From a plasmid, in the sequence record NZ_CP095281.1: a stretch of 64,000 nt of DNA, one strand, 5' to 3'. The position numbers were made by a program. Shown piece by piece: positions 13,101 through 28,100 of the stretch. Numbering within the stretch: position 1 is the first letter of the stretch; each line of letters opens with the position of its first letter.

Positions 13101-16100
13101 CGAGGTACCCCGCTGGCCAGCAGCCCCAGCCTCTCCCTGGTGGTGCGAGATCTGATCCGGTGGGGCGCTACTGGGCGATGGCCAAGTCCCCGGGCAGGAA
13201 CGCGCTGCAGTGCTGCAACCGCTCGGGGCACCCCGCTGGTCAGCCCACCCCTACCTCTCCGCGGTGGTGCGAGACCTGATCCGGCTGGCGTGCTGCTGGG
13301 CCATGTCCCCGGGCTGGACGGCAGACAGGGGTCATCACCTGGTGGGCGACCTGGTCCGGCGGCCTGGCTCCCTGGGGCGGGTGATCGCGGGCAGGAGCGA
13401 GCTACAGTGCTGCAACCGCTCGGGGCACCTCGCTGGTCAGCCCACCCCTACCTCTCCGCGGTGGTGCGAGATCTGATCCGGCTGGCGTGCTGCTGGGCCA
13501 TGTCCCCGGGCTGGACGGCAGACAGGGGTCATCACCTGGTGGGCGACCTGGTCCGGCGGCTTGGCTCCCTGGGGCGGGTGATCGCGGGCAGGAGCGAGCT
13601 GCAGTGCTGCAACCGCTCGGGGCACCTCGCTGGTCAGCCCACCCCTACCTCTCCGCGGTGGTGCGAGATCTGATCCGGCTGGCGTGCTGCTGGACTATGG
13701 CTAAGTCCCCAGGCGTGGCGGTGCGCCGGGGTCATCACCTGGTGGTGCGAGATCTGGTCCAGTGGAGCATGCTGCTGGGAGATGCATCTCCCTAGACGTT
13801 GCTGTAAGGCAGTAAATGAGCCTGTTCAGCAACTCATGTCTGAGGGCCCATCAACCGAGCATAGTTGGAATGGAGGTTAGGAATGGAGGATTAAGAGGAT
13901 AGACTGATAAACGGATAAGATATTGAAACGGGCAGATAGTTTCTGCCCGTTTCATAGAGTCCTTTAGATAAGGAAATCGTCCAAGCTCTTCCCGGCGGCA
14001 ACAGCGTCAGCAATAACCTTTGGCATGCGCCCTTGACCGGTCCAGAGCTTTTCATTGCCATCATCGATATAACGGTATTTCGGGGGCCGGGGAGCTCGTT
14101 GTTTTTTCGTACTGGCAGCAGGGCCTGCAGGCACTGATGCAGGTATGAGTTCGCTCGGATCAATCCCAGCCTGTTTCAGGAGTTCTGTGTATTCAGCCAG
14201 TTTCTTTTGATGGTCTTCGCGGATTTGCATTTCCTTGAGCTCGGCTTCTTCGCGCTCTTCGAAAATAGTTTGAAATTTTTCGTGGACTTCCTTCAGTTGT
14301 TCAAAGGAGATTTCACGCAAAGCGGCACGAAGGCTACGCACGTTAAGCAGTACTTTAAGAAATTCGTTCATTATTGAATCATCCCCAATAATATGATCAT
14401 GGCTGTGTGGCAAAATCGAATGTTGATTTGATGGAGGAAAGTATCAGGTAGCAAAAAATAACTGTCAACAAAAAATAATCCTAGTTTGTTTAAACAATGA
14501 AATTTTAACCAAAAGATAATCTTCCTTCTGATTCAATGCGATAGCTTCTTATCTGGAGAGTTGGAACGTCGTAGAAAAATGTGATTTTAGAACCTCATTC
14601 GTGGGTTGTGTAACTAACTCTTCGAGTGTTATGTGTCGTCGTTTAGGTCTAGTTTCTTATGAGATCAGTACAGAGCGAATGGCTCTGATCATGATGCATA
14701 GATGTCTCATGCGGAGATGATAAATTGAGGGCCATAAATGTATTAATAGCCCCCAATTTCAACACTGTTCGTTGTGGTTACTGCAATTAATTACATCAAG
14801 CCAGAGATTGATTTCGCCAGTTGTTCTTCAAGAACTGGCTTGGCATCGGTGAATTCCAGGTTAACTTGATTTGCAGTGCTAACAATTCTTGTCTGGAACT
14901 TCTGACGCGATCCACTTTGCGTGCTGCTTTGTTCTTTAAAACCGGACGTCCCTTGTTTCAGCTTAGTGCGGTCATTGGTCACAACAGTGACCCCATTCGG
15001 GACGCGCTCAGCAATCTGCAGGTCGGTGATCATGGTGTACGACGTATCCTCGATCATTGCGTCGGCTGCGACACCGACCAGCGCCCCAACAAGCCCAGCG
15101 CCTACAGCTGCGCCTGTAGAACTGCTGTTGTAGCCGATGACAGAAGCGCCTGCTGCTGCGCCAAAGGCACCGGCCCCCCACCCTCCTTCCAACGCAGACT
15201 GTGCTGCTCTCAGGTCCATTTTTTCAACTTTGAGCACATTCGCCTGGATCCAGTAATGGGCATCTTCTGGATTAGAGATAACGCGATAGCCTTTTGCTGT
15301 TATTGACTGGACTACTTTCGAGTCAACCAACAGATCTTGGTTGGAGGTGTTTTTGATCTGTAGATAAACCGTTTTTTCGCTCGGAGACACCGGCTCCAAA
15401 AAAATGGTCTCGGACATTTTGGTTTGAACATCGAGGTTCCGTTTTGCGACGGCAGTATGCACCGCGCTGCAACCAGTTGTGAGTGCCAGAGTTGAGGCCA
15501 GTGTGATCGCAAGAATATGCTTGTTCATGGGTTCTCCAGGGGTCTAAAAAGTGGTTATGAATTCGTGCTGTTTATTCGAGCCATCCTTGAGTAGATGACC
15601 CAGCACGTTAGCGGTGTAAAGCAGGCGGATGCCCGGGATCTGTTGTAGAAACTCTTTCAGCCGAGGGAGTTCTCTTTTATCAATTGAGTAAACATCACCA
15701 GCTTGAGTTGAGAGCCGAGCCATCGCTGACTCTCCAGCCAAAATAATGCTCTCTGGAGCAGAATGGGCATGACTCACTAATTTGAATGAGGCGATTGCTC
15801 TATGAACTGGCGTGAGTTCCAACATGTGGTTATCACGGATGACAAATGTCATCTCTGTCCGTTGGGGTTCACAAAAATAGGAGATCGACAGATGGCATTC
15901 AGGAGGCAATGTGAGAGCAAAGGTGGCCCGAATAGTTTCTGGCGTATCGAGCCGCGAAGTCACAGGCGATTTCATCATTCGTAAACATCCAGGCCTTCAT
16001 CCAATTGGATGGTTAACGTGAACGGCTCTTCAAAGTATTGATAGAACGGATCCTCCGCTGGAGGGGGAACGGCCAGACCCAAGGAAAGGAACAAGTGTGC

Positions 16101-25100: not shown

Positions 25101-28100
25101 CCTATCAGACAAGCTGATGTCTGCAGTAATGACCAGACGAGAACAGCAAATCTGTCACTTACCTGCAATTCGGCACTGATTGCAGTACTGCAAAAGCCTC
25201 CCGCAAGGGGGGCTTTTCGTTTCATTGTGTAGTCGATTCCCCATGGATACCGCGCCGCGAGCTCGGCCAGACAGCCTCCGGCGTCTGCCACGCGCTCGCC
25301 GCTGGAGAGCCCCTTCCCATGGGTACCCGCGACCCTGCCGTGCGCTCAGAGCGTTCCTGGTAGCGCTGCAGACGGTACCGCGCCGCGAGCACGGCCAGAC
25401 CGCCTCCGGCGGCTGCCTCGCGCTCGCCGCTGGTGCTCCCCTCGATGGGCAGCCGGGCCCCCTGCCGGATGCTGGGAGCGTTCCTGGTGGTGCTGCAGAC
25501 GGTACCGCGCCGCGAGCCCGGCCAGACCGCCTCCGGCGGCTGCCACGCGCTCGCCGCTGGTGCTCCCTCCCATGGGTACCCCCACCCCTGCCGGGCGCTC
25601 AGAGCGTTCCTGGTAGCGCTGCAGACGGTACCGCGCCGCGAGCCCGGCCAGACCGCCTCCGGCGGCTGCCACGCGCTCGCCGCTGGTGCTCCCTCCCATG
25701 GGTACCCGCACCCCTGCCGTGCGCTCAGAGCGTTCCTGGTAGCGCTGCAGACGGTACCGCGCCGCGAGCACGGCCAGACCGCCTCCGGCGGTTGCCACGC
25801 GCTCGCCGCTGGTGCTCTCCTTCCATTGGTACCCGCGCCCCTGCCGTGCGCTCAGAGCGTTCCTGGTAGCGCTGCAGACGGTACCGCGCCGCGAGCACGG
25901 CCAGACCGCCTCCGGCGGCTGCCACGCGCTCGCCGCTGGTGCTCCCTCCCATGGGTACCCGCGCCCCTGCCGTGCGCTCAGAGCGTACCTGGTAGCGCTG
26001 CAGACGGTACCGCGCCGCGAGCCCGGCCAGACCGCCTCCGGCGGCTGCCACGCGCTCGCCGCTGGAGAGCCCCTTCCCATGGGTACCCGCGCCCCTGCCG
26101 TGTGCTCAGAGCGTTCCTGGTAGCGCTGCAGACGGTACCGCGCCGCGAGCACGGCCAGACCGCCTCCGGCGGCTGCCACGCGTTCGCCGCTGGAGATCCC
26201 CCTCCATGGGTACCCGCGCCCCTGCCGTGCGCTCAGAGCGTACCTGGTAGCGCTGCAGACGGTACCGCGCCGCGAGCACGGTCAGACCGCCTCCGGCGGC
26301 TGCCACGCGTTCGCCGCTGGAGATCCCCCTCCATGGGTACCCGCGCCCCTGCCGGGCGCTCAGAGCGTTCCTGGTGGGGTTGCAGATGGTACCGCGCCGC
26401 GAGCACGGCCAGACCGCCTCCGGCGGCTGCCACGCGCTCGTCGCATGCGATCACCCCATGGACTCAGAGGCCTAGTTATCCACCGCTGGGGCCCTGCTGC
26501 CCGATGCCAGTCTGCAAGGGCCGAATTGTGAGTGACGGTCTTCGCCCTTCAAGCAGCTTTCGCGGCATATCCTCGTCGCAAGCGACTCGGTATTCCACGG
26601 TCTGCTTGACACTCATTCGGCCCTTGCCTCGTGGCATCGGGCAGCAGGGCAAGATGACCATGTCGGTTACTCCCGCGGCCTCAAAGGACGAGGTGAGATA
26701 TGTCAAGAATGGTCTTGGGCGATAGCGTGGAAGTCATGGGAAAAATGCCGAATGGAGTGATCGATTTTATCCTCACTGATCCGCCCTATTTGGTGGGATT
26801 TAAAGACAGAAGTGGAAGGGAGATTGCCAACGATATAAGCGATGAATGGTTGGCTCCAGCCAGTAAGGAAATGTACCGGGTACTCAAGGCAAACAGCCTG
26901 GCAGTCAGTTTCTATGGATGGAACCGGGTCGATAAATTTGTGAGCGCCTGGAAAAGTGCGGGGTTCAGGATTGTAGGGCATCTTGTATTTGCAAAGCCCT
27001 ATTCATCAAAGGCTACTTTTGTTGGGTATAGACACGAATGTGCATACCTGTTAGGGAAGGTGCGAATAAGTGGGTAGCACCTTCCTCTTTGATTGCTAGG
27101 TCGATTTTTGACTCGGCCCTTTTCTAAAATTGCCCCATTTTCTTCAAAAATCAGGCTTTATAACCATTTTCACCCCCTTTCTGGGGGTATTCCCCGATTT
27201 TAGGTAGATCTTTCCTGTGCCCTTATCAATTGATCCGCGAATTCAACTTCGAAGTGCGACACTCGCCTATGCCGCCTGACGGTACTCTTCGAATACCTTG
27301 ACAGGCTGCCTGAATCCGAGACATTTCCGAGGTCGTAGGTTGAGCCACTGCTCCGCTCTCCTGACATCCTCGTCCGTGACCTCTCTCAGGTCTGTTCCCT
27401 TTGGGATAAACTGCCTCAACAGCCCATTGCTGTTCTCGTTCAGACCGCGCTCCCACGAAGAGTAAGGGTGCGCAAAGTAAGTCTCGGCACCCAGCGCTTC
27501 CTCTATCGCCTTGTGTTCGGCAAACTCGCCGCCGTTGTCAAAGGTGATAGTATGCACCTGCTCGATGTAGGGCGTTAACATCTCGATTATCGCATCCCGC
27601 ACCACCCCAGCCTGTTTGCTCGCGACCCGCTTGACCAGATAGAGCCGGCTCTTGCGCTCCACCAGGGTGACCAGTGCACCTGTGCCTTGCTTGCCCAGCA
27701 CCGTGTCCGCCTCCCAATCACCGAGCCGCTCCCGGCTATCGACGATAGCCGGCCGTTCATCAATAGAGCGGGCTTCCTTGATGGGAGAACGCAGGCTGCT
27801 CGCCCCCTTGCGGTAGCGCTTGTGGCCCTGGCGCAGATGGCGGTACAACTGGCCACCCCGGGCTTTGTCGGCGGCCACATGGCGGTATATCCACTCGTGA
27901 CTCACCATGAGGCCTATCTGCTTGCCCACCGTGCTTATCTGCTCCGGGCTCCACCACCAGGCGAGTGTCAGCTCGACAAACTGGATGACATCGGCAGATA
28001 GCCGAGATTTGGCCGCACTGGCCCGTCGGTGGGTGGCGTGCTGATGCGCATTGTCTGGCTGGTAGCCCTGCGGCCCGGCGTTACGACGCAGCTCCCGGTA

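Follow-up and report, generated by a model that had tools for sequence, protein, structure and literature searches.

The stretch of DNA analysed here (the window) comprised 64,000 nucleotides of the plasmid sequence record NZ_CP095281.1. The subject was a group of genes at 13964-25179, which an earlier interpretation made without database searches (the sequence-only reading) had described as a co-oriented anti-defence and establishment island with the architecture of a conjugative-plasmid leading region. The window was identified as part of a pAsa8-family MOBF conjugative plasmid of Aeromonas with a TrwC-type relaxase. Positions 13000-26800 matched two Aeromonas plasmids, pAsa8 of A. salmonicida and pAsa8-b of A. 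caviae, both typed MOBF, with ~91% identity over 87-88% of the length. A contig of A. veronii was nearer still (95-96% identity over 17213-25259). The relaxase encoded in the window was 28% identical to TrwC of R388 across 930 residues.

Profile searches agreed with the sequence-only reading on H-NS, TraT, a RadC-like JAB protein, an ArdB/KlcA antirestriction protein, a ParB-like protein and an N6/N4 methyltransferase (methylase), and placed their genes where that reading had put them. The JAMM metal-binding motif HNHPSG..S..D of the RadC-like protein was intact when read in translation, and the ArdB/KlcA protein also matched the PHROG family 'anti-restriction protein' (E 1e-22). A gene absent from the earlier list was psiA; its product matched positions 37-172 of the 237 positions of the PF06952 profile, and the relatives annotate the gene as PsiA. 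The protein at 22448-23647, formerly called a TOPRIM protein, matched PHROG DNA-primase/replication families (E 1e-33 to 6e-35), and the motifs CEGVATG and VADND were recognised in it by eye, but no TOPRIM match was obtained from Pfam or NCBIfam: there was no Pfam match even at E ≤ 10 and no NCBIfam match at E ≤ 0.01. These data suggest the designation primase-like, which is used below. An AlphaFold model of this protein from three sequences had a predicted local distance difference test score (pLDDT) of 32, too low for the model to be of use. Two helix-turn-helix (HTH) proteins had also been claimed; profile matches existed for both, but all were below threshold. Sequence searches of the Protein Data Bank returned nothing relevant for the primase-like protein and nothing for HTH19573. 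The features are listed in the Table.

Table. Coordinates of the features of the predicted leading region and its surroundings in the 64,000-nucleotide window (aa, amino acids; dN/dS, ratio of non-synonymous to synonymous substitution rates)
Feature	Position	Strand	Remarks
Two related GC-rich (~62-65%) tandem arrays	12490-13693, 49154-50388		187-202-nt units
Backbone block hns, traT, o15544, o15975	13964-16193	−	Outside the variable leading module; 99.6-100% aa identity to pAsa8
hns	13964-14371	−	Both Pfam domains
traT	14791-15528	−	E 6e-81
Distal end of variable module	16286-17017	+	−10 box 16301-16311 before 226-aa protein
226-aa protein, sigma-70-region-4-like HTH	start 16337, within 16286-17017	+	Sub-threshold HTH match
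psiA module	17344-18091	−	Own promoter and leader, core 18016-18032
psiA	17344-18000	−	PF06952 E 2e-14, 53.6 bits vs 25.3-bit cut-off
Four-gene unit	18077-19956	+	Promoter 18077-18104; o18172, then leader-only o18516, o19078, HTH19573
o18172, 97 aa	start 18172, in unit 18077-19956	+	dN/dS 0.02
o18516, 174 aa	in unit 18077-19956	+	dN/dS 0.07
o19078, 153 aa	in unit 18077-19956	+	dN/dS 0.10
HTH19573, weak-HTH protein	19573-19956	+	Sub-threshold match
~340-nt GC-rich non-coding repeat, copy A	19957-20300	+	97% identical to copy B
RadC cassette	20316-21425	+	Palindrome 20316-20329, promoter/leader 20333-20422, RadC-JAB, o20905, o21165
RadC-like JAB	20423-20881	+	PF04002, 132.7 bits, E 8e-39
o20905, 88 aa	in RadC cassette 20316-21425	+	No leader
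o21165, 78 aa	ATG at 21189, in RadC cassette	+	No leader
ArdB/KlcA module	21460-21977	+	Promoter/leader 21460-21551
ArdB/KlcA antirestriction	21552-21977	+	PF03230 E 1e-20, 73.7 bits vs 25-bit cut-off
o22119 module	22012-23647	+	Palindrome 22012-22025, promoter/leader 22031-22118, o22119, primase-like protein
o22119, 89 aa	22119-22388	+	dN/dS 0.26
Primase-like protein ('TOPRIM' of the sequence-only reading)	22448-23647	+	PHROG families
ParB module	23649-25179	+	Promoter/leader 23649-23739, gene 23740-25179
ParB/KorB-like protein, 480 aa	23740-25179	+	ParB_N E 1e-25; KorB domain 25.7 bits vs 22.3-bit cut-off
GC-rich tandem array, 127-nt unit	25248-26444		9.4 copies; between parB and methylase
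Orphan N6/N4 methylase, N-terminal fragment	26700-27058	+	PF01555 profile positions 1-106
13.07-kb composite insertion, outside island	27059-40128		IS5-type inverted ends GGAAGGTGCGAATAAGT, TTAG target duplication
Orphan N6/N4 methylase, C-terminal fragment	40129-40422	+	PF01555 profile positions 155-219
o40432, 76 aa	40432-40662	+	Downstream of methylase; 40% identical to pAsa8 counterpart
~340-nt GC-rich non-coding repeat, copy B	40663-41000	+	97% identical to copy A
o41131 module	palindrome 41037-41050	+	Palindrome, promoter, diverged leader, o41131
o41131, 196 aa, acidic	41131-41721	+	Isoelectric point (pI) 4.4, net charge −15; dN/dS 0.25
o41882 leader	core 41852-41868	+	Full leader
o41882, 149 aa	41882-42331	+	First plus-strand gene below nic; 69% aa identity to pAsa8 counterpart
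Predicted origin of transfer (oriT), nic region	42744-42766	−	GCACC-N4-GGTGC hairpin, then GTAGGGTGT
Coupling protein (T4CP)	43439-45622	+	3' of island
Relaxase, TrwC family, 1149 aa	45626-49075	+	PF08751 E 5e-76

The way in which a TrwC-type nic site is placed was taken from the R388 record, in which the nic sequence lies on the strand opposite trwABC and the DNA 3' of the nick, on the stb/ardC/ssb side, enters first. The pattern derived from the R388 site, a hairpin GCACC-N4-GGTGC followed by GTA..GT.T, had a single match in the 64-kb window with 0 expected. As in R388, a hairpin with the GGTGCGTA motif was located on the strand opposite the relaxase gene, in a 600-bp gap upstream of an operon for an accessory protein, the coupling protein and the relaxase, and the 23-mer was also present in the A. 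veronii relative. The nick was predicted between 42744 and 42743 of the minus strand. Because the hairpin is on the minus strand, that strand was taken as the transferred one, with the DNA below 42743 entering first. With the 13-kb transposon bounded by IS5 insertion sequences (IS) left out, 15/15 genes from 18172 to 42331 were on the plus strand and would therefore be templated by the transferred strand; this orientation has been reported as the rule for the anti-defence genes of leading regions (Samuel et al. 2024, PMC11541004). Six genes in or beside 13964-25179, namely hns, traT, o15544, o15975, o17087 and psiA, were on the minus strand. The co-orientation claimed for the island was thus borne out from 18172 rightwards but not in the left 4 kb, from hns to psiA. 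The claim of a leading-region architecture itself was supported, more strongly than the sequence-only reading could show, by the nic hairpin, the genes templated by the transferred strand, a content (ArdB/KlcA, PsiA, an orphan ParB with an N6/N4 methylase that is disrupted here, and a primase-like protein) that is canonical for leading regions (PMC11541004), and a repeated 340-nt intergenic element with relatives in Serratia leading regions.

Some properties of the site differed from R388. The nick-proximal bases were GGGTGT, as in F, in place of TTGTCT, the transfer apparatus includes an F-type TraG homologue (annotated in the relative pAsa8-b), and the first leading genes point towards oriT, whereas R388 has a divergent stbABC operon. 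Another nic candidate, ACACTATAGCCC at ~42830 on the plus strand, had been considered first. It was dropped since R388 puts the nic strand opposite the relaxase coding strand, and the minus-strand match of hairpin plus GGTGCGTA was much better.

Two further observations concerned the surroundings of the predicted nic. The motif GGTTACGC occurred at 42813-42946 in two direct copies and one diverged copy, and formed a perfect 11-bp inverted pair at 42920-42946, just ahead of the 164-aa accessory gene; these copies are likely binding sites of a relaxosome accessory protein. An unannotated 83-aa open reading frame (ORF) was present at 42344-42595 on the minus strand, between the o41882 terminator and nic. 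It is probably a real gene missed by public annotations, since it was conserved in pAsa8-b with 83% aa identity and a dN/dS of 0.23.

The limits 13964-25179 given to the island were not upheld. The relaxase, the coupling protein, hns, traT, o15544 and o15975 showed 99-100% aa identity to pAsa8/pAsa8-b, so that hns and traT belong to a ~100%-conserved backbone, while most genes from 16.3 kb to nic were 79-99% identical. The synonymous divergence (dS) was 0.29-0.67 in most of this module, 0.04 in the relaxase gene and 0.08 in the oriT-adjacent gene o42955. In comparison with pAsa8/pAsa8-b, the whole leading module had 7-15 times more synonymous divergence than the transfer backbone. Breakpoints were located at 16.3-16.45 kb, beside the −10 box at 16301 (in comparison with pAsa8-b), and around nic at 42.7 kb (about 42600-42900). 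From these breakpoints of identity and dS, the true limits of the module were set at ~16.3 kb and the nic at 42.74 kb. Since the protein divergence was mirrored at synonymous sites, it was attributed to an exchange of the whole leading module and not to accelerated protein evolution; the data suggest that such exchange took place, possibly by oriT-linked recombination.

Expression of the leading region was organised in about eight modules (Table), and repeat finding and alignment yielded an ~83-nt cassette common to the full ones. The cassette began with a sigma-70 promoter (TTGCAT, 17 nt, extended −10 box TGCTATTAT), and a hairpin ~7 nt downstream of the −10 box marked the predicted 5' end of the transcript. 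Next came a 24-nt near-invariant element, (A)ACCCGTY-GGCCGGGGTGCGTGGCC, made of a linker and a second hairpin and abutting an AGGAG-type ribosome-binding site and the start codon. Eight exact copies of the extended −10 sequence TCTGCTATTAT were present (16301, 18064 on the minus strand, 18094, 20351, 21477, 22048, 23666 and 50585) vs 0.73 expected from shuffles, an expectation that allows one mismatch. The 17-mer leader core GGCCGGGGTGCGTGGCC occurred 9 times vs 0.31 expected (≤3 mismatches; shuffles). All nine cores were sense-oriented and directly preceded the start codons of psiA, o18516, o19078, HTH19573, radC, ardB, o22119, parB and o41882. Three of them (18487, 19050 and 19545) had no promoter and were located in the 33-50-nt inter-cistron gaps of the o18172 operon. 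A role as promoter or operator was therefore discounted for the conserved part, and its site of action was placed in the transcript or in the initiation of translation.

The shared leader and promoter signals proposed by the sequence-only reading were thus real and far above chance, but they did not extend to all of the hypothetical genes named. A full cassette preceded o22119 and o41882; o41131 had a diverged leader copy with an indel and a TTGCCT/TATAAT promoter; o18516 and o19078 had the leader without a promoter. No cassette copy was found at o20905 and o21165, which follow radC as later cistrons of its unit and have ribosome-binding sites of the ordinary kind. The use of a shared regulatory grammar to nominate candidate genes is reasonable, and its membership is now defined.

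A 14-bp palindrome, TTGCAGYRCTGCAA, was present in 27 copies vs 0.06 expected from shuffles, spread over the whole backbone including the tra region. Three copies ended 3-5 nt upstream of the −35 boxes of the radC, o22119 and o41131 promoters (centre at ~−45), an arrangement kept in the relatives, and one (25180-25193) followed the parB stop codon, next to a terminator at 25192-25217. At least 12 copies, one per unit, were in the two related tandem arrays that flank the leading region and the relaxase gene, where most units hold one CTGCAGTGCTGCAA; these arrays may be centromere-like or serve for ParB loading. The ParB-like protein contained a cytidine triphosphate (CTP) box, GERRWRA, and an HTH, and matched the structures of ParB, Spo0J, Noc and KorB (E 4e-25 to 2e-14). 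It has the architecture of a CTP-dependent clamp, with a ParB N-terminal CTP-binding domain and an HTH. We infer that it binds TTGCAGYRCTGCAA and acts like KorB of RK2.

Based on these results, it was considered probable that the region serves as the leading region of an Aeromonas conjugative plasmid of the pAsa8 family and MOBF type and that its genes form an early regulon. The proposed sequence of events is as follows. The minus strand would be nicked at about 42744/42743 and would enter the recipient 5' end first. The templates would arrive in the order o41882, o41131, o40432, the methylase (broken here), the ParB/KorB-like protein, the primase-like protein, o22119 and ArdB/KlcA, then the RadC cassette, and last the operon from o18172 to HTH19573. 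The 5' hairpin would stabilise the mRNAs, and the invariant element would serve as a sequence-specific translation-initiation or regulatory cassette giving common, high-output, co-regulated expression of all cistrons. The ParB/KorB-like protein, once accumulated, would bind TTGCAGYRCTGCAA and shut the modules down, amounting to zygotic induction followed by repression. ArdB/KlcA and PsiA would guard the incoming DNA against type I restriction and the SOS response, the primase-like protein would prime complementary-strand synthesis, and the orphan genes would be cargo of the same early regulon.

Several points weigh against this proposal. The nic site, the promoters, the link between the ParB-like protein and the palindrome, and the role of the leader RNA were all deduced from sequence. 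The orphans had no similarity to any known anti-defence protein, and ssb, psiB and ardA were not found. One −10 box, at 50585, lies outside the region. The psiA gene is on the non-transferred strand yet carries the cassette, so the cassette is not specific to expression in the single-strand phase. The methylase has been inactivated in this plasmid by the 13-kb insertion, which also moves most of the island 13 kb farther from oriT. Finally, the 340-nt repeat present in the region resembled a published Frpo* candidate weakly (E 0.02), and its DNA and RNA folded no better than shuffles (z −1.3 and +0.9).

The hypotheticals had dN/dS values of 0.02-0.32 against pAsa8-b (HTH19573, 0.28), well below 1, and were therefore regarded as real genes. 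Clear housekeeping homologues, the outcome named in the sequence-only reading as one that would speak against it, were looked for and none was found: the hypotheticals gave zero matches in Pfam, NCBIfam and PHROGs. PADLOC found nothing when run on ten orphans. Word-indexed searches of large databases returned only near-identical Aeromonas proteins, and tblastn against plasmids only pAsa8 and pAsa8-b. The hypotheticals are thus lineage-restricted orphans with a candidate anti-defence role.

Whether the nine orphans o18172, o18516, o19078, o20905, o21165, o22119, o40432, o41131 and o41882 are instead regulators, replication or establishment helpers, or selfish cargo was regarded as an evenly balanced question. 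Such roles accord with the lack of any library match and with the basic character of several of them (o18172, pI 9.9; o19078, pI 9.4), which could bind nucleic acid. They accord also with the mirrored synonymous divergence, which indicates module exchange with no arms race, and with the absence of o21165 from a close relative, which makes it dispensable there. On the other side, an enrichment of leading regions in anti-defence genes that had gone unrecognised is known from published surveys (PMC11541004), and the small acidic o20905 and o21165 are located between RadC and ArdB. Moreover, o41131 is strongly acidic and very divergent, being 31% identical to its positional counterpart in pAsa8, and is the second plus-strand gene below nic, entering after o41882. 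An exhaustive HMMER search among 1.8 billion representatives recovered two real relatives of o41131 only, and its single-sequence structure prediction had a pLDDT of ~32-33. On account of its acidity, it is suggestively the best candidate for an anti-restriction protein of the DNA-mimic type.

With regard to o21165, its body (21195-21456) was an insertion/deletion relative to A. veronii with the direct repeat AAATT on both sides, and the gene was therefore viewed as dispensable or recently acquired. The RadC cassette was missing from pAsa8 and pAsa8-b.

The leader was analysed further for its RNA structure. The window, pAsa8-b, pAsa8 and A. rivuli together supplied thirteen full leaders. A 5' hairpin of 4-8 bp before ACCC formed in 13/13, with 8 different stem sequences. 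These hairpins were out of register between genes and were thus analysed copy by copy; RNAalifold on a MAFFT alignment recovered the second hairpin only. Some of the 5' hairpins held G.U pairs, paired on the sense strand only, and a further G.U intermediate was seen in the o22119 hairpin of A. veronii. In the core hairpin, GGCCG/UGGCC, the closing pair was GC in 16 copies, GU in one and AU in one. A possible pseudoknot between ACCC and the loop GGGU of the second hairpin, judged by eye, fitted most variants and was weak in the 22119 and 41131 copies. Constraint was assessed on eight orthologous cassettes of the window and pAsa8-b. Substitutions amounted to 34% at −80 to −51, 23% in the −10 zone and 18% in the 5' hairpin, vs 2/56 in the linker and 1/136 in the core.

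The distribution of the cassette was narrow. Copies were found in four other records. A blastn search of the leader against 72,556 plasmids returned pAsa8 and pAsa8-b only, and when 185,579 species genomes were scanned with the pattern there were ~90 matches, all coincidental coding sequence except for two contigs, one of A. rivuli and a 549-bp 'Bacillus pumilus' contig (NKHG01000188.1). The latter carried the Aeromonas radC promoter and leader almost unchanged and is most likely an assembly contamination. No Rfam 15 family, including the radC motif, matched at gathering thresholds in the whole window, and nothing relevant appeared at E ≤ 5 in 17900-23800.

It is possible, although this was not the account we favoured, that the cassette is merely a strong unit of promoter, stabiliser and ribosome-binding site that was copied by recombination and gene-converted, with no dedicated regulator and no implication of shared function for the genes behind it. 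Its confinement to one Aeromonas plasmid lineage and the lack of Rfam matches are compatible with such copying, as is the movement of hairpin types between genes (psiA of A. veronii has an ArdB-type hairpin); whole modules have also been gained, lost and duplicated at cassette or repeat boundaries. However, conversion would homogenise the flanks, whereas differences of 18-34% were recorded just upstream of a core with 1/136. The core was also kept at internal cistrons that have no promoter, and the closing pair of the second hairpin changed in a compensatory manner. That a hairpin loop next to the ribosome-binding site is constrained in its very sequence suggests that the leader is read by a specific factor. 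A stronger form of this idea, that the leader is the recognition site of a trans-acting factor of the plasmid or the host (an RNA-binding protein or antisense RNA) which gates the translation of at least nine cistrons, is rather unlikely and is advanced tentatively. If it were true, the ACCCGTY-GGCCGGGGTGCGTGGCC translational regulon would do at the post-transcriptional level what the CUP/ArdK and KorB regulons do, with an on-then-off pulse of establishment genes as the result, and membership in it would mark new establishment or anti-defence genes in this plasmid family. We have not seen a near-invariant leader at the ribosome-binding site, reused at internal cistrons, described for leading regions; the function given to it here is a putative one.

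The palindromes permit another interpretation, in which the block would in the first place be a region of central control and partition of the KorB type, like the kil/kor regulon of IncP plasmids to which klcA belongs, and not an anti-defence island. The ParB-like protein and its palindrome arrays would then act in partition and in global regulation of the backbone, and the small genes would have kil/kor-like maintenance functions. The ParB_N and KorB architecture with its matches to KorB and ParB structures, the 27 palindromes over the whole backbone with two large centromere-looking arrays, the palindromes in operator position beside −35 boxes and the adjoining hns gene all fit with it. This interpretation was considered unlikely. 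A ParA/IncC partner was present neither in the window nor, in the related plasmids, among the genes annotated for this region; the block begins at oriT, and its strict orientation is that of genes read from the transferred strand; and PsiA, ArdB, the orphan methylase and the primase-like protein are establishment functions. It and the leading-region assignment are, furthermore, not mutually exclusive.

The likeness to the KorB regulon of the IncP-1 plasmids RK2/RP4 lies in a ParB_N and KorB-domain protein with a CTP-box motif and in a 13-14-bp palindrome scattered over the backbone, with some copies just upstream of −35 boxes, which is the class I operator position of KorB. A KlcA-family gene would be under such control here too; klcA of RK2 sits in the kilC operon. 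The differences are the palindrome itself (TTGCAGYRCTGCAA vs OB TTTAGCSGCTAAA), the location of many sites in tandem arrays of 187-202-nt units, and the lack of a detectable KorB C-terminal domain or KorA in the window. HerB/YfjB, the orphan ParB-like leading-region protein of F (PMC13370423), is similar in having a CTP-binding N-terminal domain and an HTH and in being oriented for early expression in the leading region. A full HerB/YfjB homologue was considered and dropped, since only the N-terminal ~170 residues aligned with a HerB-type Serratia protein (27% identity). The window protein has 480 aa vs ~650, no counterpart of D3/D4 was evident, and its alignment does not cover the four domains of HerB (PMC13370423).

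In the E. coli islands CP4-57 and CP4-6, the klcA-like yfjX adjoins the radC-like yfjY. That the ArdB-RadC cluster is a remnant of such an integrative element which landed in the plasmid, unrelated to conjugative entry, was thought highly improbable: a KlcA-family gene does adjoin a RadC-JAB gene here and the RadC cassette is variably present, but no integrase or att-like ends were found, the RadC cassette uses the plasmid's own promoter/leader module and palindrome, and the order was kept in four Aeromonas records.

The preferred assignment is that of a leading region. The island belongs to a known class, the establishment and anti-defence islands of leading regions, of which it is a good if rather ordinary representative; such islands have been surveyed for conjugative plasmids including the leading regions of F, ColIb-P9 and R64 (Samuel et al. 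2024, PMC11541004). Like these, it adjoins oriT with the relaxase on the other side, its genes point so that the transferred strand is their template, KlcA/ArdB, PsiA and an orphan methylase that neighbours an orphan ParB-like gene are interleaved with many small ORFs of no recognised family, and long GC-rich intergenic elements have relatives in Serratia leading regions. It differs in that no known anti-CRISPR was found in addition to the missing ssb, psiB and ardA, none of its elements significantly resembled the five Frpo/ssi sequences that have been characterised, psiA lies on the opposite strand, and expression is signalled by double-strand promoters of the ordinary kind, which recur as a cassette.

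The CUP regulon of the IncN pKM101/R46 leading region (Delver & Belogurov 1997), so far as it is described where cited in PMC6289460, is comparable in that a conserved promoter-bearing upstream repeat precedes several leading-region genes, including one of ardB type, and provides common control and sites of module shuffling. However, blastn with the present cassette found Aeromonas plasmids only, although IncN plasmids were part of the collection searched; nothing was recognised as a homologue of ArdK, and HTH19573 had no similarity to the TrfB-related regulator of R388. The most conserved part here is the transcribed leader at the ribosome-binding site, present also at promoter-less internal cistrons, and control would for this reason be at the level of RNA rather than of an operator. 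The resemblance to the CUP regulon is architectural only. The cassette organisation would work like the CUP regulon, and the pair of palindrome and ParB-like protein like the KorB regulon; the region shares sequence with neither.

Whether a plasmid survives the first minutes after its entry into a new host is decided by its leading region, and leading regions are recognised as places where new anti-defence genes can be found. The present example extends the picture to Aeromonas, which comprises fish pathogens and environmental reservoirs of resistance. It offers predictions of oriT and of the nic site in the pAsa8 family of plasmids, and a compact, unusually explicit cis-regulatory code (palindrome, promoter, 5' hairpin and invariant leader) that would define an early regulon. 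It also offers about nine orphan genes as a test list, with the acidic, fast-diverged o41131 first, and evidence that a whole leading module, from nic to ~16.3 kb, was swapped as a unit between otherwise ~99%-identical plasmids. Current understanding is not overturned by any of these results.

The block that runs from radC/ardB to the methylase and o40432 has one copy of the ~340-nt repeat on either side. Relatives of the first ~125 nt of the repeat occur in Serratia MOBP plasmids, situated between an antirestriction gene and a parB-like, psiB, psiA cluster; the gap between these Serratia genes matches Frpo* candidates that were published as being of low certainty (E 2e-9 and 3e-7). In blastn, the repeat itself was not significantly similar to any of the five characterised Frpo/ssi sequences, and it is put forward as a candidate single-strand promoter or replication-barrier element. 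In pAsa8, a tandem duplication (22042-28138 and 28610-34706) contained ardB, o22119, the primase-like gene, parB, the methylase and a 76-aa ORF, and its end-points, judged from gene spacing, appear to be at the 340-nt repeat.

At 18063-18105, the back-to-back promoters of psiA and o18172 form an 18-bp palindrome. The corresponding hairpin of the transferred strand (−18.6 kcal/mol in a 91-nt context, z −5.7) would rebuild a double-stranded extended −10 box facing o18172. It was partly kept in A. veronii and absent from pAsa8-b, and could be a minimal single-strand promoter.

The methylase gene was intact in the A. veronii relative (214 aa), and homology to that gene resumed at 40129, after the insertion. 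The curli locus carried by the 13.07-kb insertion was complete, with a csgD-like gene, csgE, csgF, csgG and genes for two curlin-repeat proteins; the insertion also held a truncated uvrA and transposases of the IS5, IS30-like and IS1595 families. The array at 25248-26444 had no sequence relation to the other two arrays, and in the A. veronii relative only ~400 bp matched its repeat sequence.

A strong terminator (42336-42355) followed o41882. The 1264-aa ORF at 51061-54855 (minus strand) is a probable homologue of the TraG gene annotated in pAsa8-b, and at 51770-52364 it contained six copies of a 99-nt (33-codon) repeat that were 96% alike. The cargo upstream of the island, at 2461-8985, comprised an IS transposase, an integrase-core transposase, a resolvase, two ORFs for beta-lactamases of class-A type, of which one was truncated, and a PAAR protein with a Tle1-like phospholipase type VI effector.

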